Both the position numbers and the translations under genes were made by a program. From positions 1 through 33,988 of the forward strand of contig JAEORO010000121.1 in the NCBI GenBank assembly GCA_016840855.1: 33,988 nucleotides of DNA. Reading direction: 5' to 3'. Each line of letters starts with the position of its first letter. The stretch's first letter is position 1. The notes beneath the pieces are model-generated. The model saw only the letters and a list, made by a program, of their open reading frames with translations. It searched no databases and was not told the DNA's origin. This stretch comes from Candidatus Thorarchaeota archaeon (GTDB lineage Archaea; Asgardarchaeota; Thorarchaeia; Thorarchaeales; Thorarchaeaceae). Shown in pieces: positions 3,094 through 20,375 of this stretch.

Positions 3094-6000
3094 CTAGTCA
3101 CGGTAACGTTTCACTCCGACAGCTCCCACAAACGCAAGCGCAATGAGTCCGGCAACTGGGAATATCCAGTGAATGGTTGGTAGGAAGTCTTGGCCATCTG
3201 GTATGCCATCGCCATCGGTGTCTCTGTTGTTGGGATCAGTTCCCAGAACCACAACCTCTGTGTAGTCGTCGAGACCATCCCCATCACTATCTGCTTCTCT
3301 AGGATTAGTATGGTACGTGTGCACTTCTACTCCATCAATCAGGAGATCAAAATCGGTGTCGTTGTTCATCGGCTGAGTGAAGTATGCTGTCTTCTCTTGA
3401 TAGTCGTTAAGCCCATCTGAATCGCTATCTGAGATGGTAGGGTCAGAGTACGGGGTCTCGAAAAGCTCCCTATAGTCACTCAACCCATCAAAGTCCATAT
3501 CATCTTCTAGGGGGTCTGTAGCAATGCCTAGTGGGTTGATGCCCCAAACTTCATCATAGTCGCTGATGCGATCCTCGTCAGTATCCTCCTCAAGTGGATC
3601 TGTGTCATAGACCATCACCTCTTCGAAGTCACTGAGCCCATCAAAGTCACTATCCGGTAACAACGGATCTGTGTCATAGATCAGGTACTCCTCTCCGTCT
3701 GTCAACATGTCAAAATCAGTGTCAGAACCATTGATGTTCGTACCCAGTATAATTTCAAGTCCATCAATGAGGTCATCGTTATCAAAGTCTGGATCGTTAG
3801 GTAGAGTGTGCCAGACTCTCAACTCAACCCAGTTTGTGAGGCCATCTGAGTCACTATCCCAATCTCTATCAAGTGTACCAGGATGAGTCATGTTGGTCGT
3901 CGGGTCCGTTCCAGTCAGGATGACTTCTTCATAATCGCTCAACCAATCTGAATCAGTGTCATTGGAGTCTGGTAGTGTGTGCCATGTGTTTACCTCGGGA
4001 CCGTCCTCTAAACCATCTCCATCACTGTCTTTGTTGAGTGGGTTCGTTCCCCAGTCTTCAACCTCTTCATTATCATAGAGACCATCTCGGTCAGTGTCTC
4101 TGTTCCTCGGGTCTGTTCCATAGATCTTGCACTCTTCTCCATTTGATAGCGTGTCACCATCTTCATCATCATTGTAGTCTGAGATTCCGTTATCATTACT
4201 GTCAGGGTCTCTCGGGTCCGTCTTTGTCAGAACGCACTCCCAATAATTAGTGAGTAGGTCTCTATCCTCATCGTCAGCGCCATCGTTCTTGCCATCAGAG
4301 TCAGTGTCGAACATTCTTGGGTCTGTCTTGGTGAGTCGAATCTCCTGCTGGTTCGTTAGAAGGTCCCCATCTATGTCCCAGTCTGCATCTGATATGTTAT
4401 TGCCCTGAGTACTGTAGAGGGTTGGGTCTGTGTTGGTCATATTCACCTCTTCGAAATCTGTCAGTGAATCTTTGTCTGTATCACTAACTCGTGGATTTGT
4501 ATACACCCATCTGCTGCTCACTACACCACTGATATTGAAGGTCATGTAGAAGCCGTTTATCTCCTGTCCATCCAGAAGTTTGTCATTGTCTGTATCTTCT
4601 CGCAGAGGTGAAGTGTTGTAGATATTCAGCTCGGCTCCATCTCCGAGAGAGTCACCATCTGTGTCAAAGAGCAATGGATCTGTTTCGAAGACCTTGATTT
4701 CATCATAATCGGTAAGGTTGTCTGAATCTGTATCTGTATTATTCAGGAGAGTGTGCCATGTGAGCGCTTCTTCTGAGTCTTCTAGTCCATCATTATCGGT
4801 GTCCCTGTCATTGGGGTCACTTGACCAGTAGAATAGCTCGTCCCAGTCTCCGAGACCATCATCATCACTATCGAATTTGGTAGGTGATGTTTCCCAGACA
4901 AAGATTTCAGCATAATCACTGAGTAAGTCTAGGTCTGTGTCAACCATTGTACAGTTGGTTTCATAGAGATAGATCTCATCATAGTTGTTGAGTCCGTCTG
5001 CGTCTTGGTCATCTAGGTCATCAGGGATTGTGTCACCGTCTGTATCAAGCATAAGTGGATCTGTATGACTGTTGAACAGCTCGTCTGCATCAGCTATGTT
5101 ATCTGAATCAGTGTCATCATTGATTGGCGAGGTCTTGTAGATGTTCACCTCATCTCCATCACTAATGGTGTCAAAGTCTGTATCCCAGTTCTCCCAGTCA
5201 GTTCCATTCTCTAATTCCTCAGCATCATTTAATCCATCTTGATCTTTGTCGGCTTGAGTTGGATCCGTGTCATAGAGAATCCATTCCTCCCAGTCTGAGA
5301 GTGTATCTCCATCAGTATCATTTAGCAGTGGATCTGTTCCAATGTCTAATTCCAGTTTATCACTAAGGAGGTCGTCATCTGTGTCAATCGAGTTTGGGTT
5401 AGTCCCGTACGTGTTCCATTCATCACCATCGGACAACGTATCTCCATCACTGTCCCATGATGTTGGTGATGTTATTGAGAAGTATACCTCAAAGTAGTCA
5501 TCGAGTCCATCAGAATCGCTATCTGTGCCACTTGGGTCTGTGTGATAGATCCAGTACTCAACATAGTCACTTAGTTGGTCATTATCGCTATCTTGATCGG
5601 TAGGTGATGTGCCTGACACATACACCTCAAAACCATCTTTTAGCCCATCCAAATCGGTGTCCGGGGCTGTAACGTTTGAGTGGTAACCGTATATCTCCAA
5701 TGCGTTAGACAGACCGTCAGCATCATGGTCAAGTTGTCCATCAAGTGTGCCATTTCCATAAGTTGATGCCAGTAATGGGTTTGTTCCTAGAAGCTTTACC
5801 TCGACATAATCGTCCAGTTGATCTCCATCTGTGTCTTGTATGTTGATGTTAGTCCCATAGAACAACTCATCATCATCTCGAAGTCCATCACCATCACTAT
5901 CGCTCGAGAGCGGGTCAGAGAAGTAGACGAGAACCTCATACCCATCTCCAATATTGTCGTTGTCGCTATCAAAATCTCCGGGGTTTGTTTCGTAAACATC

Positions 6001-9000
6001 GATCTCATCGCCATTAGACAGTAAATCATTATCACTGTCAATCTGATAGTCTGTGTGTGTGGCATTGTACCACATGTTGTTCGGATTGGTGTGAGTAAGC
6101 TCGACTTCAACGTAATCTGAAAGTAGGTCTGAATCGGAGTCTGCCTTTAGAGGATTAGTACCATAGTCGTTCACTTCCTCTCCATCTAGGAGTTCATCTC
6201 CGTCAGTATCGTCCTTTAACGGGTTAGTGCCATAGAGGTACTCTTCACCATCTTCTAATCCATCAGAATCGCTGTCTGGCTCAAATGGCGAGGTTTCGCC
6301 TATATTTACAACGCCATTCGCATTGACATCCTCTCCGCGTTCTCCCAAGAGCGGTTCATAGATGCCATTGTGATTTGTGTCGTTCCAACCATCATACAAA
6401 CCGTCGTTATCACTATCTGGGTCTGTAGCATTAAGACCGACATCAATCTCCAGACCATCTCTAAGTCTATCTCCGTCTGTGTCCCAAAGGGTGACGTTGG
6501 TACCATAGGTCCTCAGTTCCTCAAGGTTCGTGAGACCGTCGTTATCTTGGTCATCCTGTCCATCGAGGATTCCGTCATCGTCGTCGTCGCTATCTGTGGG
6601 GTCAGTGTAGGTGTAGAGTACTTCTTCTCCATCAGTAAGCTGGTCTGAATCAGTATCAGCTGCTAGTGGGTCGCAGTCATTGAGGAACTCCTCTAAATTG
6701 TTCAGTTTGTCATTATCAGGGTCTTCCTCCCAGTCGTAAGTTCCGTTATCGTTCGTATCGTTATACAAGGGGTCAGTACCTGTCATCTCAACTTCGAACC
6801 AGTTGGGGAGGAGGTCCGCATCCTCATCGTCATTATAATCAGAGATGCCATTATCGTTACTGTCTGTATCATTGTAAATGGTATGTGTGATATACAGCTC
6901 TATCCCATTGCTAAGCCCATCGCCATCATCGTCCTCATCATAATCTGAAATACCATTATCGTTACTGTCCTCGTCGTTAGGATCGGTGCCCAGGATGGAA
7001 TATTCATCACCATCCTTAACATTGTCTCCATCAGTGTCTGGATTTCTGGGATGTGTGAATGTCACGTTCAACTCTTCAAAATTAGTTAGTCCATCGAGGT
7101 CGCTATCCTCGAGATCATCAGTAAGAGCTGATCCTCCAGAGTCTTTTAATGTAGGATTAGTCCGTGTCAAGTAAATCTCTTGATAGTTAGTAAGGGTATC
7201 ATTATCATAATCCCAGTTTCCATCCAATACTGTAGCGTTGAAAGTATGCGGATTTGTAGCATTCCAGAAGTACGGAGCACCTCTATACTTGACTTCATCT
7301 GGATCAAGAATCAAGTCAAAATCAGAGTCAACTAAAGTGGCGTTTGTTTTGTATGTAAAGACTTCCAAACCATCTCCCAGAGTATCTCCATCCGTATCAC
7401 TTTTCGTCACATTTGTGAAATAGACATAGCACTCCAAATAGTCATTCAGATTATCAAGGTCTGTGTCAGCAGAGTTCGGGTCAGAGCCCCAGTAATTGAC
7501 CTCGAGTCCATCTGTGATATTATCAAAATCTGTGTCATTATTTAGAGGGTCAGTGAAGTACGTGTTTACTTCTGCGCCATCATTCAAATCATCATCATCG
7601 CTATCGCTGTCTGACACACTAGTACCATACACGACATATTCGTCATAATCTGAAAGCCCGTCTCCATCTCCATCAGCTTTGAGAGGATTGGAGTGTACAA
7701 TCATGACTTCCTCATAATCAGTCAATGAGTCTCCGTCTGTGTCTTCATTGAGCGGCGAGGTCTTGCTGATTTTTACCTCATATCCATCGCTCAATAGGTC
7801 GTCATCGCTATCTGGGTCATAGACACCAGTTCCGAGCTGAATCTCTTTCCAGTTTGCGAGGTTGTCCCCATCCTGGTCATCATAGTAATCTGAAATACCG
7901 TTCCCATTTGTGTCCACATCATTAGGGTCTGTCTTAGTAATTCGCACCTCTTGGATATTAGTGAGCCCGTCCCCATCGTTATCATCCTGCGCGTCATTGA
8001 TATCATCAGAATCGCTGTCTGGGTCAGTTGGTAGAGTCAGGGTGACGTTGTTTTCCTCATAGTCTGTTAGTGAGTCCCCGTCTGTGTCTGCCTGATTCGG
8101 ATTGGTGCCAAGATATATCTCCTGCCAGTCTGTGAGTTTATCATTATCTGAGTCTTTTGCATTGGGGTTGGTTCCAAATGTAATGACCTCTGCGAAGTCA
8201 GATAGCTTGTCTCCATCTGAGTCCACCTTGAGAGGATTTGTACCATAGGTCAATACCTCTTGTCCATCATTCAGATTGTCGTTATCAGAATCGGGGTCGT
8301 TATACAACGTGCCCTCCATGACAATCTCACGCGCATCTGCAAGACCATCTTTGTCATAGTCTCGCCCGTACACGGAAACACCTCCTATGTTGGTGCCAAA
8401 TGCATACTCCTGACCTCCGAAATTGTCGAGGTCTCCAATGGCTAAAGCACCTGCGAACCCGTTTGCAGTGAGCTGATTGACTCTCCATCCTGTGGAGTTG
8501 TATATCGTTAGGGTGTTGGGTGTCCCAACAAGGACCTGTGCATTAGGCGGCGTATCTCCGATGTCGGGGAACCTTATATCATTGGGTTGCCCACCCATGG
8601 TCTTGTTCCATGCTAATACGCCAGAGGAAGAATATACCCTCAGTTGATTTGACGCAGTGCCCAGAGCAAATTCGTGCTCCCCACCCGCCACAAGATCTCC
8701 AACCCTGAGGGCAGAGATACTGCTACCAAGCTCGAGTTTGAACTCAAGACTCCCAGTGTCAGACCAGACATTGAGAGTACCATTAGTGTTCCCGTACAGC
8801 ATTTCCCAGTTCGATGTGAACGAGAGGTTTCCCATAGCAACGACCCTAATTGCTGTAGGACTCGTCTTCTCGAACACAATTGTGCCTGTGTCTTGTAAGA
8901 GAGTGAACCGCCTTCCATCAGAGGCCACTACAAACTCAGTTCGAGAGTCTGCGTCTATGTCCGCACCGGAAATCAATCGTACCTTGCCATTGCTCAGGTA

Positions 9001-9567
9001 GCTCCAGAGTGGAGTGGTGTTGATCTCGAAGGTGTAGACATAGAAGTCGTCACAGCCCACAACGACCTCCTCAAATCCGTCCCCATCGAGATGTCCGCCT
9101 GCAACAGCATAGACTGGCTCAGGAAGTGACATGTTCATTTGAACTGCCTTATCTGCTCCAATCACAACGATGCCATAGTCTGTACCTATGAGGATCTCCT
9201 GACCGGAAGCAGCAGTGCCATCGATAGCTGCAATTGCGTGTGGTGTCGAGCCAAGTCTCAGCTTCCACAAGAGTGTGCTATTGTCATCGAAGAGGTACAG
9301 TGTACCATTCTGGGTGACAACCGCAACCTCATCTCGCAGGTCTGCATCGAAGTTGTCAACAACAAGATCCACGACCTGATTTCCTGTCGTGGTCGACCAA
9401 ACAATGGCTGTGTTGAACGGTGCAATCTCTGCGAGTGAGTGCGGAACCTCTTGAGCCTGTGGGCTCGTGATTGTGACGGGCTGTAAGCCTGTATCTGTTG
9501 TCTGGATTTGTAGTCCTGCGAGTGCGCAGACAACCAGTAGGGCTATGATCACATGATAGGTCTTCAT
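3094..9567 (-). CDS. Giant cell-surface protein: signal peptide, FG-GAP/BBS2-like beta-propeller, long TSP3-type Ca-binding repeat array, C-terminal TM anchor
   Basis: N-terminal MKTYHVIIALLVVCALAG; blades with D-x-D-x-D-G-x-x-E-hydrophobic-G motifs; about 1700 aa of D(S/T)DxDGLxDxxE...TDP repeats; C-terminal WIFPVAGLIALAFVGAVGV-KRYR. GGAGG RBS and ATGA overlap with the upstream ATPase. Confidence 0.9.
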   Translation of the reverse strand: MKTYHVIIALLVVCALAGLQIQTTDTGLQPVTITSPQAQEVPHSLAEIAPFNTAIVWSTTTGNQVVDLVVDNFDADLRDEVAVVTQNGTLYLFDDNSTLLWKLRLGSTPHAIAAIDGTAASGQEILIGTDYGIVVIGADKAVQMNMSLPEPVYAVAGGHLDGDGFEEVVVGCDDFYVYTFEINTTPLWSYLSNGKVRLISGADIDADSRTEFVVASDGRRFTLLQDTGTIVFEKTSPTAIRVVAMGNLSFTSNWEMLYGNTNGTLNVWSDTGSLEFKLELGSSISALRVGDLVAGGEHEFALGTASNQLRVYSSSGVLAWNKTMGGQPNDIRFPDIGDTPPNAQVLVGTPNTLTIYNSTGWRVNQLTANGFAGALAIGDLDNFGGQEYAFGTNIGGVSVYGRDYDKDGLADAREIVMEGTLYNDPDSDNDNLNDGQEVLTYGTNPLKVDSDGDKLSDFAEVITFGTNPNAKDSDNDKLTDWQEIYLGTNPNQADTDGDSLTDYEENNVTLTLPTDPDSDSDDINDAQDDNDGDGLTNIQEVRITKTDPNDVDTNGNGISDYYDDQDGDNLANWKEIQLGTGVYDPDSDDDLLSDGYEVKISKTSPLNEDTDGDSLTDYEEVMIVHSNPLKADGDGDGLSDYDEYVVYGTSVSDSDSDDDDLNDGAEVNTYFTDPLNNDTDFDNITDGLEVNYWGSDPNSADTDLDNLNDYLECYVYFTNVTKSDTDGDTLGDGLEVFTYKTNATLVDSDFDLILDPDEVKYRGAPYFWNATNPHTFNATVLDGNWDYDNDTLTNYQEIYLTRTNPTLKDSGGSALTDDLEDSDLDGLTNFEELNVTFTHPRNPDTDGDNVKDGDEYSILGTDPNDEDSNDNGISDYDEDDDGDGLSNGIELYITHTIYNDTDSNDNGISDYNDDEDADLLPNWFEVEMTGTDPLYNDTNDNGTYDWEEDPDNDKLNNLEEFLNDCDPLAADTDSDQLTDGEEVLYTYTDPTDSDDDDDGILDGQDDQDNDGLTNLEELRTYGTNVTLWDTDGDRLRDGLEIDVGLNATDPDSDNDGLYDGWNDTNHNGIYEPLLGERGEDVNANGVVNIGETSPFEPDSDSDGLEDGEEYLYGTNPLKDDTDGDELLDGEEVNDYGTNPLKADSDSDLLSDYVEVELTHTNPNNMWYNATHTDYQIDSDNDLLSNGDEIDVYETNPGDFDSDNDNIGDGYEVLVYFSDPLSSDSDGDGLRDDDELFYGTNINIQDTDGDQLDDYVEVKLLGTNPLLASTYGNGTLDGQLDHDADGLSNALEIYGYHSNVTAPDTDLDGLKDGFEVYVSGTSPTDQDSDNDQLSDYVEYWIYHTDPSGTDSDSDGLDDYFEVYFSITSPTSWDSDGDTLSDGDEWNTYGTNPNSIDTDDDLLSDKLELDIGTDPLLNDTDGDTLSDWEEWILYDTDPTQADKDQDGLNDAEELENGTDWENWDTDFDTISDGDEVNIYKTSPINDDTDSDNIADADELFNSHTDPLMLDTDGDTIPDDLDDQDADGLNNYDEIYLYETNCTMVDTDLDLLSDYAEIFVWETSPTKFDSDDDGLGDWDELFYWSSDPNDRDTDNDGLEDSEEALTWHTLLNNTDTDSDNLTDYDEIKVFETDPLLFDTDGDSLGDGAELNIYNTSPLREDTDNDKLLDGQEINGFYMTFNISGVVSSRWVYTNPRVSDTDKDSLTDFEEVNMTNTDPTLYSTQGNNISDADWDIDGDLLTNQQEIRLTKTDPRMFDTDSDGKNDGADDEDRDLLTNYWECVLTKTDPRDPDSNDNGISDYNDDEDGDTLSNGEECKIYGTDPRNRDTDRDGLYDNEEVEDWGTNPLNKDSDGDGLEDGPEVNTWHTLPDSNDTDSDWLSDYEEVILTGTDPTTNMTHPGTLDRDWDSDSDGLTNWVELRVWHTLPNDPDFDNDDLIDGLEIILGTNINGSDTDFDMLTDGEEYLIYDTDPLLPDSDFDGLSDFEEVMVYDTDPLEEDTDEDRISDYDEVWGINPLGIATDPLEDDMDFDGLSDYRELFETPYSDPTISDSDSDGLNDYQEKTAYFTQPMNNDTDFDLLIDGVEVHTYHTNPREADSDGDGLDDYTEVVVLGTDPNNRDTDGDGIPDGQDFLPTIHWIFPVAGLIALAFVGAVGVKRYRD
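3180..8365 (-). repeat. Coding tandem array of bacterial-type thrombospondin type-3 (TSP3_bac-like) repeats
   Basis: Units of about 22-23 aa (DTDGDGLSDGEE...GTDPLN), roughly 70 by length estimate, diverged at DNA level. Confidence 0.9.
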
Positions 9568-10562
9568 GGTGTGGTTCCTCCTATTTCACCAGGATTGTGT
9601 TTCCAGGGTTTTACCTGGAAATAGTCAAAGAAGTCAGCCTCAACCAGACTGACCTCTTCAAATGGTAGTTTCATTTCGTTGAGTCTCTTGATGATTGGTA
9701 GGATTTGCTCATCTGGGTCATCGATGAAAAGCTTCATCGCATTCCTACCAGCTGGCGCAGTGTACTGAACTCCTGGCAATGCATTGATTCGCCTGATAAT
9801 CTCGGGTGTCATGGCATGCATTACAAGACGGATGCTCTCACCCCTACCCGGGAGTGTTGAGATTAGTTCCTGTGGTGTGCCAAACTGACTCACATCACCT
9901 TCCTCAAGAAGGCATACTCGTGTACAATAATCAACAATCTCAAGGTCATGGCTGATGATGACCATGGTCGTGCCCAGTTCATAATTAAGTTCTTTCAGGT
10001 AGTTAAGGGTTTCATGCCGCAGATGTGCGTCTAAACCTGTGGTGGGCTCGTCAAGTAATAGCACGGGAGGGTTGTGTATCATCCCAAGGCAGATGGACAC
10101 TCTCTTCCGTTCTCCACCCGACAATCTGTCCACTCTCTTTGTGATGAGCTCCTCATCGAATCCTAGGATGGTGAGGATGTTTCTGGCTCGCTTCTCAATC
10201 TCCTTAGGTCTTAAACCGAACATTCGACCGAAGAACTGGGCGTTCTGAAGTGGGTTAAAATCATAATAGAGGCTCAAATGTTCCAGCTGTGGTACATATC
10301 CTACAAGGAGGCTTATCAGTCGAGCCTTTTTCGTGACATCATATCCGCCAACGAATGCCTTTCCATCAGTTGGGCTTATTTGACCGGTAAGCACTCTCAG
10401 CACTGTCGTCTTGCCAGCTCCCGAGGCTCCTATGATTCCCAGAAACTCCCTCTTGTTTGCGAAAAACGATGCTCCTTTCAGAGCGAAGAAATTCCCAAAG
10501 GCTACTTTGAGGTCGATGATGTCAATCTCCCTGTGCGTTTCCTTGGCATCAGGTTTTCCCAC
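9564..10562 (-). CDS. ABC transporter ATP-binding protein (ABC-2/DrrA/GldA-like)
   Basis: Walker A GASGAGKT, Q-loop GYVPQ, signature LSGGE, Walker B LLLDEP, H-loop ISH; C-terminal accessory domain; GGAGG upstream. Confidence 0.95.
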   Translation of the reverse strand: MGKPDAKETHREIDIIDLKVAFGNFFALKGASFFANKREFLGIIGASGAGKTTVLRVLTGQISPTDGKAFVGGYDVTKKARLISLLVGYVPQLEHLSLYYDFNPLQNAQFFGRMFGLRPKEIEKRARNILTILGFDEELITKRVDRLSGGERKRVSICLGMIHNPPVLLLDEPTTGLDAHLRHETLNYLKELNYELGTTMVIISHDLEIVDYCTRVCLLEEGDVSQFGTPQELISTLPGRGESIRLVMHAMTPEIIRRINALPGVQYTAPAGRNAMKLFIDDPDEQILPIIKRLNEMKLPFEEVSLVEADFFDYFQVKPWKHNPGEIGGTTP

Positions 10563-10563
10563 A

Positions 10564-13500
10564 TCACACGCCTCCTACCTTGTCGCTCACGCGATCAAAC
10601 ATCTTGCGTCCTTCCTCAATGTCTTGCATGAGCACACGCAACGCCTCGATCTTCTGAATACGATCAAGGTCTTCTCTCTGTATGAGTTCTTCAAGCTGAG
10701 TGAATGCTGCCAGCAGTGCCATCAACGTGTTGTCAATCTCACGAACAAGATCAGTATCAATCTCCGGAATCCTGAGCCGCTTTCTCATCCTCCTACGGTT
10801 CCAAACTAAATAACCAATTAGTCCACCAAATATGCCAAGAGATGTCAATAGCGCAAACTCAGCCATGGTCAAGAATTGAGTTGTGGGTTCAGTGGGTGGA
10901 GTTGGTTCTAGTTCGTAGAGATAGAAACTTACACTCGCATATGTCATAGCGTATTTCTCATCACCCAAGATGAGGAATATGCCATTGATTTTTCCCTCCC
11001 TTCTCCAGTAACTTGGTGCAAATTGAGAGGAGTAGAGACCATCCTCCACAAAACCTGCAATAAAGAATGTAAGGCTTCCATTAGGTAGCTCATATGCAAT
11101 GGCAACGAACAAGTCATTTACAGGATTTCCATAGTAATCCTTCAAATTCAGATTTACATAGACACTTCGACCAGCTTCATAGTAGATTGTGTCCTCCGAG
11201 AGGCTTGTCGAAGTTGTAAGAGTGTTACGAAGCAAGAATTGATTCAGGTTATCGAGCAGTTTTCTGTTGTTGCACTTCACCAGATTCTTGTTCATGAATA
11301 TTTTAGATGATCCGAATATTGCGAGTTCTGGGTCAGTTGTATCTAGAACAATGACGCTGTTTCCATTGAGTCTGGCATTTGCTTGGGACTGGTTGTTCAT
11401 AATATAGGTGCCACCACCCAACCAGATGCAGTCCAGACCGAGACCCAGAGGTTTGGTTGTTACAATGTCAGTTGTGTTCTCTTCGTCATGACTTCCTGCA
11501 AGGAAATATCCATACTTTGTTAGCAACGGGTTGAGTATAGTCGTATTTGCATTATCATCATTATCGCCAAGAACGACGAGCGTGCCACCATTTTGGGAGA
11601 AGTCCCGTAAAATATCAATCTCTGTCTGATTGAACTCCTCAGTTGGCGCAATTATAAAGACAGTTGAGAAAGTCGTCAATAGACCTTCACTTAGCTCCAC
11701 TCCTGGAGTTTCGATGAGGTCCAGACCGACATCAGCCATTATTTTCTTCATATTTGAGAGACCTGAAAATGTAGTCATTCTGAAGGAGTCGAAGAGACTA
11801 GTGATTGATCCCAGGCTATCGAGATCATTCAAACTAAAGTCCATCCCCACAGAGCTATCATCTACGAAGTCTTCCTGAGCTAATGGAAAACCGAATCCAG
11901 TATCTCCGGTAAGATTTCCAGTGTCACCTAAGCCACCAATGTCTCCCATAAGCGACCCAAATCCACCTCCATGGGATGTATCAAGTAGCATCATCGCTCG
12001 TGGATATTTCAACACTCTTTCGAGTGTGATATTTGTACTCCATCCTAACTCAGTTTCAAGCACATAATCACACCTATGATACCCATCCATTCCAATTGGC
12101 GGAGCCATCAGAAACAGTGAGAAGTCATAGTATCCTTCGATTGTTTCAGCGCTTGTCAAGGACATGTTACCCCACTCTGTCGCATTCCCATAATTTGAGA
12201 TAGTGAGATTTCCTAATGATTCAGTGGTTGATAAGACAAAACTGTAAAGTCCAAAGTCTGCTGGGAATCGAATATCAAATGGGGCAAATGGTAGCTGCTT
12301 TGGAAATACTGATGTTGATGATATCGGAGTTATTATGAATACATCTCGCAGCAAAAAGTCGTCTAGGATTCCGACTCCTGCTGTAAGTAGTAGTTGCGTC
12401 GGATTAGAAACGAGATTCACAATTTGATCTAGTCCTGTGGAAACCGCCCAAGCTGCAGTTCTGATGCCCTCTGTTTCTGGTCGCCAATCTGTGACGAGCA
12501 CCTTTGCTTTGAATGGTTCTATCACATCATATGAGAAGTACTTTCCAAACATAGTTCCCTGATCTGCAGAACCCTCTACCACCAACATGGCTCCTATTGC
12601 TGTGGAATTCTCTTGTCCGATGTTCATAATTACAGCTCTCGATTGATATGTTTCACCTGCTTTAGCTATTCGTGGGACATCAGCTTCTACAACCATTAGG
12701 TCTCCTTGAGATAATGCCCCTGCAGGAATGCCATATTGCCACATGGCATTAATTGAAGCATCAAGAACTGTACGATTTTCTCCGAAGCCCATAGCTATCG
12801 TCACATTAACGAGCTCATCAGCGTCTAGAGTGCCAAAATCCCATTGCATTGCCAAACCAACGTCACCATCAAAAACAGTTGTTCCTGTCAGGTTATTATT
12901 TGACACGTGATTGGCAATATTGGAAGAGTTGCCAACTTCGAAGGCAGAAAGTGGAATACTTGAGTTCATTCCAACGTAAAAGTTGCCGTAACTCTCTGAA
13001 AGACCATATGCGAAAAGCTGCTGGTCATCAAGGTCATATTTACCATGATCTGCTTCACCATCAAGATAGAGGTCCATTGAATACGACACATACAGACTCA
13101 CATTCTCAACAGGGTCACTACCAAGATTGAGGATGAATGGAGTTATTCTGAATGCTGTTAAAGGCAGAGGTGAATAGAATGTGAGATTATATGACTCTAC
13201 CAATAATGTGACATAGATTGAGTCATTGAATGATAATACTCCTACATATCGGTTGTAAGGGACCGTGAGCGACTGTGAAACAACCTGGTGTAACTCTCTT
13301 TTGACATCAAACATCATCAGATTCATCGGGTCTTCGTTGTTCCATTTTAACGAGAACATTCCCATCATCAGGTGAATTCCTGAATCCTGAGGATTTCGTT
13401 GATCGAGGGCTACAAGAGTTGTTCCGAAACTGCTCATCAGCATCGTAGTTGATGCATCTGTTCCACTTGCAGTGACAAGTCCTAATGCAAGAAGAGGTAG

Positions 13501-14946
13501 ACTTGTAGTTCGCGTGTGTGGGTCTCCAGGTGTTTGCTGTGTACTTAGATAGTCGAATGCAGCTTGTAAATTGAGAAGCCCTGCTCCTCCATCATTTGCT
13601 CCATATCCGATTTGAGTCGCAGTATCTCTAAGTACATTCGCTAGGGTTATTGGAGTAGCTCTATCGAAAGCTTGTAGTAGGATTGCTACAGCTCCAGCGG
13701 TGATAGCAGCAGATGCTGCTGTTGTGTCTGCAATTGTATAGTTTTCATCTATAGTTTCACCAAGTGAACCTCCGAGTAATCCTCCGAGTCCTCCTAGGTC
13801 TCCAAGATCACCCAGCGATAGGTCGCCGAAACCAAGACTACTAAGACCAACTCCTGCTTTCGCTCCAACCACGCCAACTCCGGGAGCTACAAGATCTGGC
13901 TTTGTTAATAGTGAGAGAGAGGGGCCTCTCCCTGAGAAATCAGGAATCTCCTGATTTTCTGTGTCATATGCTCCCACGCAGAATGATGCGGCACTTCCTC
14001 CAGGTGACATTACTGTCAAATAGTCTGGTCCATCATCACCTGCTGCAGCTATTACGAGGATGCCCTTGTTGGCAGCAATCTCAATCGCCTCAGAAACCGC
14101 ATCATCAGGCGCACCAAGAGTATTGAATGGGAGCAAGATGATATCAGCGCCACGACTACTTGCCCAATCTATGCCTGACACAATCCAGCTAGGAGCAGCA
14201 AAGAGACCTCCCAAAGTCACCTTCGCAGAGAGCAGAGTCGCACCTGGAGCAATGCCTGCATACACTCCTCCTGACATGTTTCCCGTTCCTGCTGCAACCG
14301 AAGCCGCATATGTTCCATGTCCAACAAGGTCCAAGGGTAATGTGTCTGCCTCTACAAAGGATGCAAACGAAGAAACACTAAAGTCAGGATGGAGGGGGTC
14401 AACTCCAGTATCAAGAACTGCGATGACAGTACCAGTTCCATTATATCCTGCATCCCAAAGGTCTCTCGCTCCAATTCGGTCAATTAGGGGTACATAATCT
14501 TCTGAAGATGATGCCGAAGTCACAATATTTTGCGTTTGTTGAATAGCTGAAACCTCATTTGACCAAATTTTTGTGATGAATGACTCCTTAGCCAAGTCCA
14601 CGATAGAAGAACCTAACATCCTCACATGGAGCATCCCTATTGATTCAAAGGCTTCAATCAATTCCGCAGTTCGGTCTGCAAACAATATTGCATTCTTAGC
14701 TTTGAATGCTCCTACCTGTTCGTCATACCCCACAAGAACATCAGTATACTGGTTTAAGGAGGTCTGGTTGAGTAATGAATCATCAATCTTATCCATCGGT
14801 TCTACCAAATCTGGACTGATTGCAATAGCAGGTGGGAAAACTGATAGTCCACTGACTATAATGATACATACAAGAATGTATGCTACCACTTTCTGGGTCA
14901 GATGCACCATCGTATGTTTCAGTCCAGCCATCAAATCACTTCTCAA
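10564..14946 (-). CDS. Membrane-anchored S8 subtilase-like protein, probably catalytically inactive, with GIFT-like and Ig-like domains, TM and helical cytoplasmic tail
   Basis: IAVLDTG (Asp), GHGT (His), FSGRGP and KPDLVAPG are present, but GTSMA is replaced by TTAAS. Later come LLDTSH...FIIAPTEEF...EIDILRDFSQNGGTLVVLGD...LNPLL (GIFT/DUF4350-like) and the TM FALLTSLGIFGGLIGYLVW-NRRR. True start probably ATG 14931 or 14910. Confidence 0.85.
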   Translation of the reverse strand: MRSDLMAGLKHTMVHLTQKVVAYILVCIIIVSGLSVFPPAIAISPDLVEPMDKIDDSLLNQTSLNQYTDVLVGYDEQVGAFKAKNAILFADRTAELIEAFESIGMLHVRMLGSSIVDLAKESFITKIWSNEVSAIQQTQNIVTSASSSEDYVPLIDRIGARDLWDAGYNGTGTVIAVLDTGVDPLHPDFSVSSFASFVEADTLPLDLVGHGTYAASVAAGTGNMSGGVYAGIAPGATLLSAKVTLGGLFAAPSWIVSGIDWASSRGADIILLPFNTLGAPDDAVSEAIEIAANKGILVIAAAGDDGPDYLTVMSPGGSAASFCVGAYDTENQEIPDFSGRGPSLSLLTKPDLVAPGVGVVGAKAGVGLSSLGFGDLSLGDLGDLGGLGGLLGGSLGETIDENYTIADTTAASAAITAGAVAILLQAFDRATPITLANVLRDTATQIGYGANDGGAGLLNLQAAFDYLSTQQTPGDPHTRTTSLPLLALGLVTASGTDASTTMLMSSFGTTLVALDQRNPQDSGIHLMMGMFSLKWNNEDPMNLMMFDVKRELHQVVSQSLTVPYNRYVGVLSFNDSIYVTLLVESYNLTFYSPLPLTAFRITPFILNLGSDPVENVSLYVSYSMDLYLDGEADHGKYDLDDQQLFAYGLSESYGNFYVGMNSSIPLSAFEVGNSSNIANHVSNNNLTGTTVFDGDVGLAMQWDFGTLDADELVNVTIAMGFGENRTVLDASINAMWQYGIPAGALSQGDLMVVEADVPRIAKAGETYQSRAVIMNIGQENSTAIGAMLVVEGSADQGTMFGKYFSYDVIEPFKAKVLVTDWRPETEGIRTAAWAVSTGLDQIVNLVSNPTQLLLTAGVGILDDFLLRDVFIITPISSTSVFPKQLPFAPFDIRFPADFGLYSFVLSTTESLGNLTISNYGNATEWGNMSLTSAETIEGYYDFSLFLMAPPIGMDGYHRCDYVLETELGWSTNITLERVLKYPRAMMLLDTSHGGGFGSLMGDIGGLGDTGNLTGDTGFGFPLAQEDFVDDSSVGMDFSLNDLDSLGSITSLFDSFRMTTFSGLSNMKKIMADVGLDLIETPGVELSEGLLTTFSTVFIIAPTEEFNQTEIDILRDFSQNGGTLVVLGDNDDNANTTILNPLLTKYGYFLAGSHDEENTTDIVTTKPLGLGLDCIWLGGGTYIMNNQSQANARLNGNSVIVLDTTDPELAIFGSSKIFMNKNLVKCNNRKLLDNLNQFLLRNTLTTSTSLSEDTIYYEAGRSVYVNLNLKDYYGNPVNDLFVAIAYELPNGSLTFFIAGFVEDGLYSSQFAPSYWRREGKINGIFLILGDEKYAMTYASVSFYLYELEPTPPTEPTTQFLTMAEFALLTSLGIFGGLIGYLVWNRRRMRKRLRIPEIDTDLVREIDNTLMALLAAFTQLEELIQREDLDRIQKIEALRVLMQDIEEGRKMFDRVSDKVGGV

Positions 14947-16627
14947 TAGTACCTTGAATCAGACCTCGTGTGATCGCGACATAGTAGTCTACCATGTCTG
15001 CTACTGACTTTGTTTTAACAATCTTAACTGCGATATCCTGGTCTTTTAGAGCTATTACGCATCTCTCAGCAACCACTTCCAAAGGCTCATCCGTGAAGAT
15101 TTTCAGGAGTTCCCCACGCTGAAGCACGAAGCGAACTCCCTTTACAGTTTCTAGAGTTCTTCTTGCTCTCGGGTCAACCTCCTCCAGCACAATGCCAACA
15201 GCAAACCCTCTAGAGGGCATTGACTCCTTTAACGAGGCTGGGCTTCCGAATGCAACTAGGCTCTTACCTCGCATGAATACCGCTACCTTGTCGCAGAACT
15301 CTGCTTCAACAGGATAGTGTGTAATGACTATGATTGAAGTTCCATACTCCTGATTGATATACGAAAGATAACTCCAGAGCTCATTTCGATTATCTGGATC
15401 CAAACCTGATGTGGGTTCATCCATGAGAAGCACTTTGGGCTTATGTGCTAAGGCAATTGCAATAGAAACCCGTCTCTGCTGTCCACCACTTAGTTCTCGG
15501 GTAGCACTATTTCCCTTCTCTAGGACGCCAAAGTCTCTGAGAAGTGTCTTTCCTCTTTGAATGAGTTGCCATTCTGGAATGTCATACTGCTTTCCAAAGG
15601 CAATAATATTCTCGAGAGGTGTGAAGGTTTCGTACATGTACGAAAGGTCCTGAGGGCAGTATCCAAAGAAGTGTCTGACTTTCTGTGTCTGTCTTGAGTC
15701 AATACCCGCGATTCTCGCAACTCCAGTACTAGGAATGTCACCAATTAACGCCTTCACAGTTGTGGATTTCCCTGCACCAGACTCGCCAATGATGGCTAGC
15801 ATCTCCCCTTCTCGCATCGAGAATGAAACATTTTCAATGAGTTTCTTTCCACTCTTGATTGCCACAGTCAGGTTTCTTGCTGCAAGTACATCCCTATACT
15901 CGGGAGCTTGTTTCCAAGCAAAGGGCATTATGTAGACCTTGTTCGCCAGAACTGTGAGGTTTGGATTATAACTGGGTCCAATCAGAAGCTGCGGCTGTGC
16001 AACCATGTAGATTTTTGGATCTCCAACCTCTTCCTCCGGAGCAACTCTTACTTCAAGAGTCCCCTCTGGGAGAATAGGAGATGGTTTAGTTGTTGCACCG
16101 ACAATTGATCCTTTGATCATGATTAAGGTCTTATCAGACCCTCTTCGACCCCATACAGTGCACTCGACTTCTTGGCTCTTCATTTTTTCAAGATCTTTCA
16201 CTGCTTGCTGTAAATCTCGACCATCATAATACAAGTCATCCGCCATATTCCTTTTCAAGTAGTTCTGGACGGTGATTTGTGTCGCAGCTACATCATCCTG
16301 AGATGAGCTCTCTCCGCCCACTGTCAGAACTTTATCAAGCTCTCCTGCTCGTTGCCTTCGAAGATCTTCTTCAACATAGATGGCAATTCTTCGTGTGAGG
16401 ACACCTTTCTTGACTTTCAAGACTCGACCCTTGAACTTCACTTCTTTGCCTGTTGATGTCAGCTTTCCTTCGACCTCGCAGTGCAATTCGCGGGTCTGTC
16501 GAGTGATGCACCAATCAATGGCCTCACCTACTCGAGCTCCTGAGAAGTATGCTTCTTCAACAAAAGCAGGCTTTTCTTCTTCAGGCAAATCTCTACTATC
16601 TGTGTCGAGAATCATCTTCATAATCAC
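14936..16627 (-). CDS. ABC transporter ATP-binding protein with a ~240-aa N-terminal extension (two TrmB C-terminal-like subdomains)
   Basis: Walker A GESGAGKS, GYCPQ, LSGGQ, LLMDEP, ITH. The extension contains EVEGKLTSTGKEVKFKGRV...LTVGG...DDVAATQITV. True start may be ATG 16621 or 16615 after the GGTGA motif. Confidence 0.9.
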   Translation of the reverse strand: MIMKMILDTDSRDLPEEEKPAFVEEAYFSGARVGEAIDWCITRQTRELHCEVEGKLTSTGKEVKFKGRVLKVKKGVLTRRIAIYVEEDLRRQRAGELDKVLTVGGESSSQDDVAATQITVQNYLKRNMADDLYYDGRDLQQAVKDLEKMKSQEVECTVWGRRGSDKTLIMIKGSIVGATTKPSPILPEGTLEVRVAPEEEVGDPKIYMVAQPQLLIGPSYNPNLTVLANKVYIMPFAWKQAPEYRDVLAARNLTVAIKSGKKLIENVSFSMREGEMLAIIGESGAGKSTTVKALIGDIPSTGVARIAGIDSRQTQKVRHFFGYCPQDLSYMYETFTPLENIIAFGKQYDIPEWQLIQRGKTLLRDFGVLEKGNSATRELSGGQQRRVSIAIALAHKPKVLLMDEPTSGLDPDNRNELWSYLSYINQEYGTSIIVITHYPVEAEFCDKVAVFMRGKSLVAFGSPASLKESMPSRGFAVGIVLEEVDPRARRTLETVKGVRFVLQRGELLKIFTDEPLEVVAERCVIALKDQDIAVKIVKTKSVADMVDYYVAITRGLIQGTIEK

Positions 16628-17806
16628 CTAATCCAATGTTGGCTTCTTTGAGAATATGTAAGTAGCAACCAAAATCGCTACAACTGAGAATCCAAACAGA
16701 GTGAGAACTCTGTCAATAACCTCAATCAGGGATAGTCCTTTGAAAGCTGTGTCAATCAGAAGGTTAAGTCCTTGATTCATTGGCAAGATTGAATCTAATA
16801 TTCCTACATCAATGAAAAATCCTGAAAGAATCAGAGTAGCAAATAATACGAAGAGAAACATCTGATTCGCTTGTAATCTAGTACCTGCAACTGCTGAAAT
16901 TAATATCCCTGTGGCTGAACCTGTGAGTGAACTCAGGCTCATAATGATCACAAGAGAGATGAAACTTGTATTGAGATTAAGATCGAATGCTAGTACCCAC
17001 AAGGTAACCAATAGAAGTGACTGGAAGAAACCAATGATAACATATCCAAACACTTTAGCTACTATTACCTCCAGTCTACTAGTTGGTGTTAGAAGCATTC
17101 TTCGAAGTGGTGTATCACCTACGATTGATTGTGCTGATGTCATTGCAATCCCAAGATAGCTTGAAAAAATAACAATGAAACCTCCAAACACACTCTCTAG
17201 GTACCCCCCTTCTGGTGTGAACTCAATAGTCACGCCGGGAAACACCTCTGATCGAATCCAGAGTTTTGATGCTCTGAATAGGATAGTTCCTGCTTGCACA
17301 ATTCCTTGAATGGAAGCTGATCCCAGTAAATCGTTGCCATCATAATGCACTTCGATGTATGTTGGCTCATTTATTGTGAGGTTGGCTTCAAATCCGTCAG
17401 GAATAACGATGTATGCGTCAATTAATTGGTCGTACAGTGCTCTATATGCATCAGCTGTACTATTATAGAGTGTCACATTTGCCAATTCATCAAAGAAACC
17501 AGTCAAGTTCTCAGAAAGGTCATCTCCGTCATAAGTTCTAGTTGTATCTAAATCCACTACACCAAGCAAAATTCCACTTCCTGTAGTGGTTTCATTGTCG
17601 TCGCCACCACCACCTATACCTCCCCCTCCTCCAAGCCCCATACCCCCCATGCTACTGGACTCTGTCACATACCAGAGCATGCCAATAAGTGCAGCTGGGA
17701 GCATGAAAATCAGAAGCAGTGCAACTTTATCCTTTACTATTAATCGAAGTTCTTTCACTACCATATTTCTGATGCGTCGGGATGGTTTTGTGAGAACTTC
17801 TGCCAT
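16628..17806 (-). CDS. ABC-2 type transporter permease (YhhJ/GldF-like) with large extracellular loop
   Basis: N-terminal KELRLIVKDK plus TM1, extracellular loop (GVVDLD...YIVIPDGF), LRRMLLTP...VIVAK coupling region, five further TMs, LSGFF and LPM motifs. Confidence 0.9.
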   Translation of the reverse strand: MAEVLTKPSRRIRNMVVKELRLIVKDKVALLLIFMLPAALIGMLWYVTESSSMGGMGLGGGGGIGGGGDDNETTTGSGILLGVVDLDTTRTYDGDDLSENLTGFFDELANVTLYNSTADAYRALYDQLIDAYIVIPDGFEANLTINEPTYIEVHYDGNDLLGSASIQGIVQAGTILFRASKLWIRSEVFPGVTIEFTPEGGYLESVFGGFIVIFSSYLGIAMTSAQSIVGDTPLRRMLLTPTSRLEVIVAKVFGYVIIGFFQSLLLVTLWVLAFDLNLNTSFISLVIIMSLSSLTGSATGILISAVAGTRLQANQMFLFVLFATLILSGFFIDVGILDSILPMNQGLNLLIDTAFKGLSLIEVIDRVLTLFGFSVVAILVATYIFSKKPTLD

Positions 17807-18014: not shown

Positions 18015-20375
18015 GTGAATATCTTCCAAACGAGGTTCCTTGAATTGGTTGTTGATGATTCTGCCCGTTTGCAGCGTTTTAGAAGAGTGGCACAGAATCA
18101 TAGATTACAATTACCAACCGCTAAGATGCCTGCAGGTTTGGAGATAAGTCATTTAAGAGATCAAATCAACGCTTCCGTTTATCTTGAGGCTAAGCCCTGG
18201 ATGCTTCCCTCTTGGGTAAACCTCACCTTGAAAGGCTTGGACAGGGAAAAAACACTATTATCTACACTACCAAATAACACCTTTCGGAATTGGTCACTGA
18301 TAGGTGGAGTGGGTACTAAAAACTTCGGCATGACTGACTCACGAGGATTAGTAACAGGTATTCCAAGCTGTGGCGCAATAGATGTCTGGGTTCTTGGACC
18401 AGATGGTATCATTTTTCCTGCACTCATGGGGAAAGACGAACCACAGCTAGAACTTGTTTCGACGGAAGATCAGCTCTATGAATGGAAGACATACATTCAA
18501 TCAGTCGAGTTCACCAGACTTGTCTACCATGTTGAAGACCAAGGTGTTGACTTCCTTTACAACGAGGTAGTTATGAAGAACATCTCGCTTGAATATGCGA
18601 AATTGACCTTCTATTTTACTCTGAGACCCATGTCTGTGTTAGGCTTTGAGCCGATTGAAACAATAGAATTTGATGCCAAGACAAACCAGATTAATGTCAA
18701 CGAACTTCTAGCGCTTCAGCTTGATACTGCGCCATCGTCATTCTATCTGGTTAATGCAAACGACAGCTCTATTCCGGAGATTATTCAGTCTGACAAAATC
18801 AGGTATGATAACAAGATTTCATCTAAAGAAATGTTAGGAACCGCTATTCTGAAATTTGATGTTGAGCTTCCCCCTGCAGGAACTAGGTCTATGCTCTTTG
18901 CTTCACCTCTTGAATTAATCCCCAAAGATGTATCTACAAAACATAGACCCGATAGTCATAATCGAGACATTTCGATCAGAAAATGGTATGAATTTTCCAA
19001 GAAACGTGGTGAAGCTCTCTTCCCAGATGGGAAGCTGGATACTGTCCTATCACAGGCTTCTGCTTGTCTTGCCATTCAAGCTTGTTCAGTCCTATTTCCA
19101 GATGCTTCAGATAATACACAACTCATCTTGAATTGGAAGGATCGAATGAGAGTTCTCCTTGCATTGATTAAGTCTGGCGGAATTGATGTGGTCCACCAAA
19201 TTACACACAACATAATCCTAACTTTTCAGAGCTCGAAAGGCATCTCAGAAGCTACAATGGTTTCCCCAATGCTATGGGGGCTTCTAAAAATGCAAGGATA
19301 TTCGTTAAAGAGGGAATCTCTTCAAGATGTGCATAAGTACCTTGTATCTCTTGTTGAAAACTTAATTACCAAACTTACTGCGGACTATTCTGGAAACCTA
19401 AGAGCCCGCAGCATTTCTAATGAGTTGTCTGAAAGTGAAGCTGAAGATGTACCACTTGAACACTATCGTCTTCTGAATACCCAATTATTGACAGAGTTCA
19501 ATGAAGCACTTTGGGATCTAGCAGCGCTTAAGGAGAGTCTAGCCTACTTTGTACTGACTGAAGTGGCCCTATCTTCAAAAATCAAAAATACAATATCCCT
19601 TGTTGAAAAACATGCGCAAGAGCAACTTTTCGAAATTCAAACAGCAAGATGGCCACGTCGCAATGACTCTCGCATGCCTGAAATTGATAGGACATTACTG
19701 GACATATTGACAAGTGTTATTCAACTCACAAACTATGGATTTGACAAGGCTCTTCTCAGATCTCTGTGTAAGGATATATCCAAAAGGCGCCTTGTACGAG
19801 GTCTTTGGAAAACGCATGAAACTGATGAATTTCCCTCAAGTCATCTTGCTCTGAGACTTGCGCAGTTCCATGTTTGGGATAAACAGCGTGATCTAGCTGA
19901 ACCTCTTCTCCAAAGGGCTCTTCAATTTCTCTCTGAAGATTATCTCCTGCCCGATTTTGTAAACCCTCGAACTTTTGGAGGTGCTAATGGAGATGGGGCA
20001 AGCGTACTAGCAGCTGCAGACCTCATTTTGCTTATCAGTGACATGCTTGTTCACGAAGACCAAAACAACCTTGTCTTTCTTGCGGGCATACCAAGTGAAT
20101 GGTTTTCAGCAAAGAAACCCCTTCTGATAGGTGGACTTCCCACTCGGTTTGGAAAAGCGCACATTGACATAGGAATGTCCGCAAATCAACACCAGATTGA
20201 AACTGGAATGGAAATTCTCCCTGATGAGATTGAAATTCATCTACCTGATAGCGTCCCGATAAGGATGGTGAAAGCATATGGTGGAAGTATTGTTGACAGA
20301 GCTGAGAACGACAGCTCCCCTTACATTCGACTAATTCCCTTGTCAAATGATGTTGTACTAACATATCACCGATAA
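18015..20375 (+). CDS. Six-hairpin (alpha/alpha)6 glycosidase-like protein, motifs appear degenerate
   Basis: N-terminal beta-rich region (RNWSLIG...DSRGLVT...IDVWV), helical middle, and C-terminal LVFLAGIPSEWF...LPTRFGK resembling six-hairpin glycosidase C-termini. Confidence 0.6.
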   Translation: MNIFQTRFLELVVDDSARLQRFRRVAQNHRLQLPTAKMPAGLEISHLRDQINASVYLEAKPWMLPSWVNLTLKGLDREKTLLSTLPNNTFRNWSLIGGVGTKNFGMTDSRGLVTGIPSCGAIDVWVLGPDGIIFPALMGKDEPQLELVSTEDQLYEWKTYIQSVEFTRLVYHVEDQGVDFLYNEVVMKNISLEYAKLTFYFTLRPMSVLGFEPIETIEFDAKTNQINVNELLALQLDTAPSSFYLVNANDSSIPEIIQSDKIRYDNKISSKEMLGTAILKFDVELPPAGTRSMLFASPLELIPKDVSTKHRPDSHNRDISIRKWYEFSKKRGEALFPDGKLDTVLSQASACLAIQACSVLFPDASDNTQLILNWKDRMRVLLALIKSGGIDVVHQITHNIILTFQSSKGISEATMVSPMLWGLLKMQGYSLKRESLQDVHKYLVSLVENLITKLTADYSGNLRARSISNELSESEAEDVPLEHYRLLNTQLLTEFNEALWDLAALKESLAYFVLTEVALSSKIKNTISLVEKHAQEQLFEIQTARWPRRNDSRMPEIDRTLLDILTSVIQLTNYGFDKALLRSLCKDISKRRLVRGLWKTHETDEFPSSHLALRLAQFHVWDKQRDLAEPLLQRALQFLSEDYLLPDFVNPRTFGGANGDGASVLAAADLILLISDMLVHEDQNNLVFLAGIPSEWFSAKKPLLIGGLPTRFGKAHIDIGMSANQHQIETGMEILPDEIEIHLPDSVPIRMVKAYGGSIVDRAENDSSPYIRLIPLSNDVVLTYHR

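Follow-up and report, generated by a model that had tools for sequence, protein, structure and literature searches.

The closest known counterparts of the element described here are archaeal sugar-responsive transcription factors of the TrmB type (Pyrococcus furiosus/Thermococcus litoralis; structures 3QPH and 2F5T). The second subdomain of the TrmB effector domain (positions ~160-233 of the family PF11495) is described, in the part of a TrmB review used here (PMC4158304), as a strand and a helix followed by an irregular, flattened, seven-stranded barrel. According to the same part of the review, this subdomain holds the non-reducing glucosyl of maltose or sucrose via Asn305, Gly320, Met321, Val324, Ile325 and Glu326, a seventh contact (Ser229, on helix E-alpha-3) comes from the first subdomain, and of all these contacts TrmBL1, Tgr and MalR share only Gly320 and Glu326. 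Here we analyze a stretch of 33,988 nt from Candidatus Thorarchaeota archaeon (contig JAEORO010000121.1, assembly GCA_016840855.1), the whole of which we call the window, and in it a gene for an ATP-binding cassette (ABC) ATPase (14936..16627, minus strand) that begins with two copies of this TrmB subdomain.

Regulatory domains occur on other ABC ATPases, such as MalK (binding of MalT and EIIA-Glc), MetN (C2 domain, methionine), ModC (molybdate) and OpuA (CBS), and the accessory domains of MalK, MetN and ModC tune ATP hydrolysis in response to a ligand or signal. Like these, the Asgard double barrel is a non-catalytic accessory domain on a cytoplasmic ATPase subunit and could couple a signal to hydrolysis. 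Unlike them, it is N-terminal, of TrmB type, duplicated within one chain and carried by an exporter-type ABC-2 ATPase; the MalK, MetN, ModC and OpuA domains are C-terminal, adopt TOBE/OB, ACT-like or CBS folds, belong to importers and form dimers between subunits. To our knowledge, the built-in ligand sensors of ABC ATPases are C-terminal, have other folds and sit mostly on importers.

Two further systems invite comparison. An earlier note, made from the sequence alone, had likened the fusion to Wzt of the O-antigen ABC-2 exporters, which could be seen as analogous in carrying a sugar-recognizing, beta-rich module on an ABC-2-class ATPase. Unlike the barrels, the Wzt module is a C-terminal jelly-roll that recognizes the capped end of a lipid-linked polymer, and the Asgard operon has no polymer-synthesis genes. 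No Wzt chain is among the fold matches of the double barrel, and the extra module here is N-terminal. GldA/GldF/GldG of Bacteroidota and the PF09822 system resemble the present locus in that a single operon encodes an ABC-2 ATPase, a permease of the same class and a large GldG/GIFT-like protein outside the cytoplasm. Unlike our locus, the annotated Gld system is not known to have TrmB barrels, a second ATPase, a subtilase fusion or a giant TSP3 protein, and the GldA model TIGR03522 scores 100.7 bits on the barrel ATPase, under its cut-off of 402.6. An archaeal GldG-like system, arCOG01314, was considered as the same system and rejected because, in the part of the source used here (PMC5898192), its partners are vWA and AAA+ proteins, not ABC subunits.

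Full-text literature searches, supplements aside, returned no description of a TrmB-domain ABC ATPase, and in an Asgard transporter survey (PMC7997004) the terms 'TrmB' and 'GldG' each have 0 occurrences, supplements again aside. A piece of the TrmB sugar-binding domain is reported in another non-regulator archaeal family tied to glycosylation, arCOG03414 (PMC5898192, in the part used here). Many relatives of the ATPase already carry a PF11495 flag in databases, where one fragment bears the name of a TrmB sugar-binding-domain protein, so the architecture can be detected but is uncharacterized.

Over its first ~240 residues the ATPase consists of the second TrmB effector subdomain, duplicated in tandem. 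Repeat 1 (residues 22-127; 16247..16564, minus strand), which has the strand, helix and flattened beta-barrel of that subdomain, is matched by PF11495 (Regulator_TrmB) at E 2.1e-7 and 30.9 bits (cut-off 22.2), with residues 43-121 falling on profile positions 162-231 of 233. The match is confined to the last third of the TrmB effector domain, and profile positions 1-161 are unmatched. The same site scores 24.9 bits in the whole-genome scan, still above the cut-off, and PF11495 is also matched in 7 of 11 distant relatives, in one of which (P0129) the match falls in repeat 2. No helix-turn-helix or other DNA-binding family is among the 21 Pfam matches, and the protein as a whole is not a member of the TrmB regulators: unlike TrmB, it has no winged-helix DNA-binding domain, is not a transcription factor, and carries the barrel twice in tandem, fused to the N-terminus of an ABC ATPase.

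We compared both repeats with seven genuine full-length Asgard TrmB genes (PF11495 positions 2-230, open frames of 364-396 aa), of which the last ~90 residues were used. Profile-profile alignment with hhalign joins these C-terminal subdomains to repeat 1 with 97.1% probability (E 6.9e-11, 70 columns) and to repeat 2 (residues 128-240; 15908..16246, minus strand) with 95.8% (E 8.1e-9, 83 columns). All controls, one reversed and 20 column-shuffled templates, stay at or below 1.1%, with E >= 0.048.

Fold comparison gives the same answer for both copies. An AlphaFold model of residues 1-245 (predicted local distance difference test, pLDDT, 79.8; predicted template modeling score, pTM, 0.74) has the order strand, helix, barrel twice (E22-29/H30-42/five strands and E132-135/H136-148/five strands). 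In the predicted models each repeat has five barrel strands by DSSP, against the seven-stranded TrmB barrel of the review part cited above (PMC4158304). In a Foldseek search of the whole N-terminal extension against the PDB, only two matches reach E <= 1e-3 and both are TrmB (3qph_A, 5.4e-6; 2f5t_X, 6.8e-5). By VIA, repeat 1 superposes on 3qph_A with Z 14.9 and a root-mean-square deviation (rmsd) of 1.8 A over 93 residues (model 22-127 on TrmB 247-342) and on 2f5t_X with Z 14.3, the next chain being a Pelota N-domain at Z 7.0. A Foldseek-independent search over 48,161 representative chains returned the same two TrmB chains and nothing else at Z >= 8. Repeat 2 was also folded alone on its own alignment (A4; pLDDT 75.4), and 3qph_A and 2f5t_X again rank first in Foldseek against the PDB, with E 1.0e-3 and 1.5e-3 (next 1.9e-2); VIA gives Z 12.8 for both chains, with rmsd 3.0 (3qph_A) and 2.6 A over 95 residues, and the next match at Z 6.2. 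The predicted models of both repeats thus resemble the TrmB strand-helix-flattened-barrel fold, at Z 14.9 and 12.8. Ranks 3-50 of the Foldseek list for the double barrel (HtrA/DegP proteases, PilZ) were rejected as two-barrel lookalikes (rmsd 12-20 A, E >= 2e-3), and in an ESM Atlas look-up the top score was 0.81, to integrase-like clusters and within the noise range. The TrmB relationship is remote but consistent.

That two repeats of ~100 aa precede the nucleotide-binding domain (NBD) had been claimed in the earlier note from coordinates 15925-16555, which correspond to residues 25-235 of the ATPase, with repeat 1 starting from Y27 and repeat 2 from Y133. The peptides it quoted are all present in the open reading frame (ORF), the duplication lies far beyond chance, and the extension matches TrmB by both profile and structure, as it had proposed. 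Direct BLASTP between the repeats yields a marginal match (78 residues at 24% identity; E 0.005, the search space being tiny), so profiles were needed. Family profiles of the two repeats, cut from an alignment (A1) of 31 sequences, align with a hhalign probability of 98.4% (E 4.4e-15, 96 aligned columns), and a column-reversed template drops the probability to 0.1%. The relatives come from two sets: 2501 candidates, of which 150 proteins reached E <= 1e-3 (120 are listed), and 1.84 billion cluster representatives, which gave 16 matches. Among the matches listed, nearly all relatives are 555-566 aa long, and those with names are Thorarchaeota, plus single Loki-, Odin-, Hod- and Promethearchaeota labels. 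The presence of tandem TrmB-type barrels on an ABC ATPase is thereby confirmed, with both homology and duplication supported.

In alignment with the Asgard sequences, the ligand loop of TrmB is retained in repeat 1, with three of its residues absolutely conserved. The loop T102-V-G-G-E-S-S-S-Q-D-D112 (16292..16324, minus strand) is, in an ungapped alignment, the counterpart of the TrmB sugar-contact loop K317-D327. It aligns without gaps with the Asgard TrmB stretch VGGRDASIEDVEATTIT and via it with residues 318-333 of 3qph_A (Asgard TrmB K-I-A-V-G-G-R-D-A-S-I-E-D-V-E-A-T-T-I-T against repeat 1 V-L-T-V-G-G-E-S-S-S-Q-D-D-V-A-A-T-Q-I-T). The Asgard TrmB, aligned to 3qph_A, reproduces the numbering of the part of the review cited above (N305, V318-G-G-M-F-A-V-I-E-D327), and the correspondences from TrmB to the ATPase are Asn305 to I81, Gly319 to G104, Gly320 to G105, Met321 to E106, Val324 to S109, Ile325 to Q110, Glu326 to D111 (Asp for Glu) and Asp327 to D112. 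The sugar-contact residues of the loop thus fall on G105-D111, in line with the proposal of the earlier note that the GG...ED loop is the sugar loop of TrmB, and the shared pattern reads V-G-G-x5-[ED]-D-[VI]-x-A. Repeat 1 keeps both contacts that, by that part of the review, span the family, Gly320 (G105) and Glu326 (D111), and repeat 2 has neither.

Across 132 relatives, T102, G104 and D112 are each present in 132/132. Position 105 is G in 86, S in 40 and another residue in 6; position 111 is E in 53, Q in 46, D in 27 and another residue in 6, so that an acidic residue (E or D) stands there in 80/132. In repeat 2 the GG...ED loop is replaced, and the Thor-type sequences carry a conserved A-Q-P-Q-L-L-x-G-P-x-x-N-P-N-L-T in its place; K230 of this repeat is present in 131/132 relatives. 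Repeat 2 of other Asgard families keeps (I/V)-G-G and, at one locus (L033), also N-D-V-A-A. Because these families still have the loop in repeat 2, both copies must have begun with it, and its loss, which the earlier note had read from this one sequence and which the alignment and the conservation among the 132 relatives bear out for this lineage, is specific to the Thor-type proteins.

The remainder of the protein is a conventional ABC ATPase. The ORF gives 563 aa from a GTG; the true start is probably M5 (ATG), which would give 559 aa, because M5 is nearly invariant in the 31-sequence alignment and most homologues are 559 aa long. The NBD (residues 246-470; 15218..15892, minus strand) contains the ABC_tran match (PF00005, residues 265-407, E 1.1e-27), and its catalytic motifs are intact (Walker A GESGAGKS at 281, LSGGQ at 379, Walker B LLMDE at 399 and the H-loop THY at 436), with a Q-loop that reads CPQD. 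The best solved relatives in a PDB sequence search are the NBDs of ABCA7, ABCA3 and ABCA1, at E 1.9e-57 (8edw_A) and below. The closest NCBIfam model is drrA (TIGR01188; 172.6 bits over residues 264-541, under its 312.45 cut-off). By these model scores the ATPase is related to DrrA and GldA but a member of neither named family. A C-terminal domain of ~90 residues (471-563; 14939..15217, minus strand) appears to be of the DrrA/ABC-2 ATPase type, judging from the TIGR01188 alignment, and has no match of its own in the Pfam scan. The gene is single-copy in its genome (3.36 Mb, 259 contigs, 92% complete, 6% contaminated). A 268-nt metatranscriptome contig labeled as soil is 100% identical to 15771-16038, the junction of repeat 2 and the NBD; the library may hold DNA and the remainder of the gene is without RNA cover, so no conclusion on expression is drawn. 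The DNA itself occurs in marine-sediment, mangrove and soil metagenomes from six studies.

The N-terminal extension, used as a query, has a match in 126/400 genomes of the phylum. It is near-universal in the family to which our genome belongs (f1, 80/85 genomes) and frequent in f14 (17/19), f15 (5/5), f16 (6/6), f17 (3/3) and f23 (4/4); five of 14 genomes match in f21, and none in f22 (0/135), f8 (0/31) or f11 (0/22). The total is a lower bound, since a family-specific query raises the f21 count to 11/14. PF11495 itself is found in 228/400 genomes of the phylum, mostly as the first subdomain only (positions 2 to ~137) in proteins of ~250-290 aa; many of these first-subdomain matches hold in-frame stop codons at the match end. 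Among the matches listed (149 more are unlisted), the second subdomain occurs outside the ATPase barrels only in the seven full TrmBs, and in the genome of our archaeon it is in no protein other than the barrel ATPase.

The barrels also exist without the ATPase. A profile search with A2, the family profile of the N-terminal extension, found 247-aa proteins that consist of the double barrel alone (P0148, P0150). One such free-standing double barrel, in genome G140 (L057, 1501-2244, plus strand, 247 aa), has an unrelated gene on the opposite strand next to it and no adjoining ABC gene; its genus also has a fused form of 639 aa (G142), and the copy in G143 is interrupted by stop codons. Single-barrel ORFs of ~130 aa, counted from the likely Met, occur at L039 (9784-10281, minus strand), L040 (1904-2407, minus strand) and L041 (9702-10181, plus strand). 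In these, I-G-K-P replaces V-G-G and an Arg-rich or Arg/Asp-rich low-complexity tail follows. We infer from the free-standing double and single barrels that the barrel unit is a mobile, autonomous module.

An ABC-2 permease and a second ATPase, the latter without barrels, always accompany the fused gene. On the minus strand the order is permease, barrel ATPase, S8/GldG-like protein, second ATPase and a giant TSP3/beta-propeller protein, and we compared 14 related loci from eight families. The permease (16628..17806, 392 aa; ABC2_membrane_3, E 7.4e-30), which has a long loop after its first transmembrane (TM) helix, lies directly upstream and abuts the ATPase gene; it adjoins the barrel ATPase in 14/14 loci, and each of the two f21 loci has two permease genes. 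The second ATPase (9564..10562, 332 aa; ABC_tran, 2.6e-25) has intact catalytic motifs and no barrels, and an orthologue lies within the locus in 13/13 informative cases (L027 is broken by scaffold gaps). It is likely the NBD partner of the barrel ATPase, and both ATPases appear catalytically competent.

Between the two ATPases lies a membrane-anchored protein of 1460 aa (10564..14946, minus strand) with S8 and GldG-like domains (Peptidase_S8, 1.4e-37; IFT52_GIFT, 5e-9; DUF4350; ABC_transp_aux) and a C-terminal TM helix. It is matched in 11/14 loci; there is none in L034 and L035, and the L027 match is partial, cut by a scaffold gap. Its subtilase domain has the Asp motif DTG (residue 179) and the His motif HGT (residue 210), and reads A-D-T-T-A-A-S-A where Gly-Thr-Ser-x-Ala is expected. 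The protein is probably inactive as a protease because the catalytic serine motif is absent. After the TM helix comes a 78-aa cytoplasmic tail (10567-10800, minus strand; R-I-P-E-I-D ... I-D-N-T-L ... E-D-L-D-R-I) that is conserved in ten loci from five Asgard families, with N24 and D46 invariant. A predicted complex of the N-terminal extension (A2) with this tail (A3) scored 0.01 against a mark of 0.32, a result that counts neither for nor against an interaction. The giant surface protein (3094..9567, minus strand, 2157 aa; TSP3_bac, 2.8e-43) has a signal peptide, a beta-propeller, TSP3 calcium-binding repeats and a C-terminal TM anchor, and is found downstream in the f1 and f2 loci. A hydrophobic segment at the N-terminus and a TM helix at the C-terminus are common to both large proteins. 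The conserved module includes no gene for a glycosyltransferase or a lipid carrier.

Three other genes of the window lie near the operon. A 786-aa ORF (18015-20375, plus strand), divergent from the operon and adjoining it in four related loci (L025, L026, L028, L029), has no Pfam, NCBIfam or PDB sequence match (PDB at E <= 1). A 291-aa ORF (20461-21336, minus strand) weakly matches the first longin domain of FUZ/MON1/HPS1 (E 6.9e-4, under the cut-off), shares a 20-kb stretch with the operon in three related loci, and may encode a eukaryote-like trafficking protein. Approximately 7 kb from the operon, 25077-28016 (minus strand) encodes a GH38 alpha-mannosidase with four domains matched.

We propose that the double barrel senses a ligand in the cytoplasm and serves as a regulatory module. 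Repeat 1 would bind a small metabolite of the cytoplasm, with a sugar or a derivative of one as the most plausible candidate, in a putative pocket lined by T102, G104, G105, D111 and D112. Repeat 2 would fill the place of the first TrmB subdomain, as a second wall, or that of the regulatory domain of a second protomer. A single chain would thereby equip a heterodimeric pair of NBDs with a pseudo-dimeric regulatory unit, a role for repeat 2 that makes sense if the barrel ATPase pairs with the barrel-less one, and ligand occupancy would shift the barrels against the NBD, tuning ATP hydrolysis and the work of the membrane machine. Taken jointly with the assignment of the gene product as one ATPase subunit in a conserved ABC-2 transporter of Asgard archaea (type V, ABCA/DrrA-like), we give this regulatory reading a probability of roughly 0.5; within it, a sugar-type ligand is likely, if by no means assured.

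Several points weigh against this proposal. The ligand-sensing domains of ABC ATPases that we know of are C-terminal, and this one is N-terminal. The idea of a heterodimer with a pseudo-dimeric sensor rests on gene co-occurrence. In repeat 1, four of the six barrel contacts named in the cited part of the review (Asn305, Met321, Val324 and Ile325) are not conserved, as they are likewise not kept in TrmBL1 and Tgr (PMC4158304). The first TrmB subdomain, which closes the cleft, is missing altogether, and the ATPase therefore has neither helix E-alpha-3 nor the Ser229 contact that the same pages place there. Even the two kept positions vary, with Gln at that of Glu326 in 46 and Ser at that of Gly320 in 40 of the 132 relatives; the never-varying T102, G104 and D112 are not among the contacts given in that part of the review and could have a purely structural role. 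In addition, a phmmer search of PDB sequences with residues 1-245 had no match below E 0.18, and hmmsearch with the family profile A2 found no TrmB there (best E 0.46). The TrmB relationship is remote because the family profile misses the PDB TrmB sequences, and with these direct searches null, it is the Pfam model and the profile-profile comparison with Asgard TrmBs that carry the sequence link.

The alternative that survives best, although we consider it unlikely, is that the barrels have lost small-molecule binding and act in protein-protein contact or assembly, with the barrel-less ATPase, the permease or the S8/GldG-like tail as partner. The retention of just two of the seven TrmB sugar contacts of the cited review part, one of them variable, would fit such a docking role. 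So would the strongly conserved surface motif AQPQLLxGPxxNPNLT and K230 (131/132) of repeat 2, which look like an interface, and the conservation of the 78-aa tail across five Asgard families; the wider fold class (Sm-like, WYL and Pelota N-domain, Z 5-7) is also rich in interaction domains. However, the invariance of T102, G104 and D112 sits exactly in the loop of the TrmB ligand site, and a double barrel standing free of any ABC operon, as in G140, is less expected of a pure docking module.

Less probable again is a Wzt-like role in substrate recognition, whereby the barrels would read, at the cytoplasmic face, a sugar head group on the substrate being transported or processed, for example a lipid-linked glycan, and permit transport only with the right glycan. 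Such a role would be one of choosing the substrate, as opposed to metabolic regulation. The transporter belongs to the ABC-2 class, as do Wzm-Wzt and TarGH, and the operon products include large surface proteins. A TrmB barrel grips a non-reducing glucosyl residue (PMC4158304, in the part used here), and the TrmB sugar-binding-domain piece in arCOG03414 belongs to a family with predicted roles in lipopolysaccharide biosynthesis or glycosylation (PMC5898192, in the part used here). Against this, genes for a glycosyltransferase or a lipid carrier are missing from the conserved module, the permease, with its large outside loop, belongs to the ABC2_membrane_3 type and not to that of Wzm, and the module of Wzt is C-terminal with another fold.

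It is very improbable that the barrels bind a nucleotide, a second messenger or nucleic acid and so link the transporter to a stress or signaling input. The fold matches that follow TrmB (Pelota N-domain; WYL domains of PafBC, BrxR and CapW; LSm/Hfq) and the Arg-rich tails of the single-barrel paralogues would be in keeping with such a role, but the Z of 5-7 of those matches falls where the comparison tool speaks of a common arrangement, TrmB scores twice as high, and the conserved loop is acidic (D111, D112) and so poorly suited to phosphate or nucleic acid. That the TrmB likeness is a chance similarity of small beta-barrels, and the extension an unrelated lineage-specific domain, is scarcely credible: small barrels are common folds and neither the single sequence nor the family profile finds a PDB TrmB chain by sequence, but the profile, motif and fold results already contradict it (a Pfam score over the curated cut-off, profile-profile matches to real Asgard TrmBs with clean controls, an 18-residue ungapped motif match, and TrmB as the sole Z >= 8 match of both repeats among 48,161 chains).

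Returning to the ligand-sensing reading, a more specific form of it can be outlined, to which we would give a slim chance. A sugar reader of pseudo-dimeric build, carried by one of the two ATPases in a heterodimer, might gate an Asgard surface machine according to the cytoplasmic level of a glycan precursor or to the head group of a lipid-linked glycan. The machine so gated might consist of the ABC-2 motor, the probably inactive subtilase/GldG-like protein and the giant calcium-binding stalk.

An exporter-type ATPase thus carries, twice over at its N-terminus, a sensor barrel otherwise known only from sugar-responsive transcription factors of archaea, and the gene of this ATPase is near-universal in one Asgard family and embedded in a conserved operon for giant surface proteins. 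The organisms are uncultured, yet the question is accessible to ordinary biochemistry via protein made in E. coli. If the barrels bind a metabolite, they would offer a direct way to learn which signal this Asgard surface machine answers to, the barrel of TrmB would prove to be a portable sensor, and the invariant triad T102/G104/D112 would be a ready set of mutants. If the gating reading is true, it would reveal a new coupling of envelope assembly to sugar supply, in which a TrmB-type sensor acts on a transporter without any transcription step.

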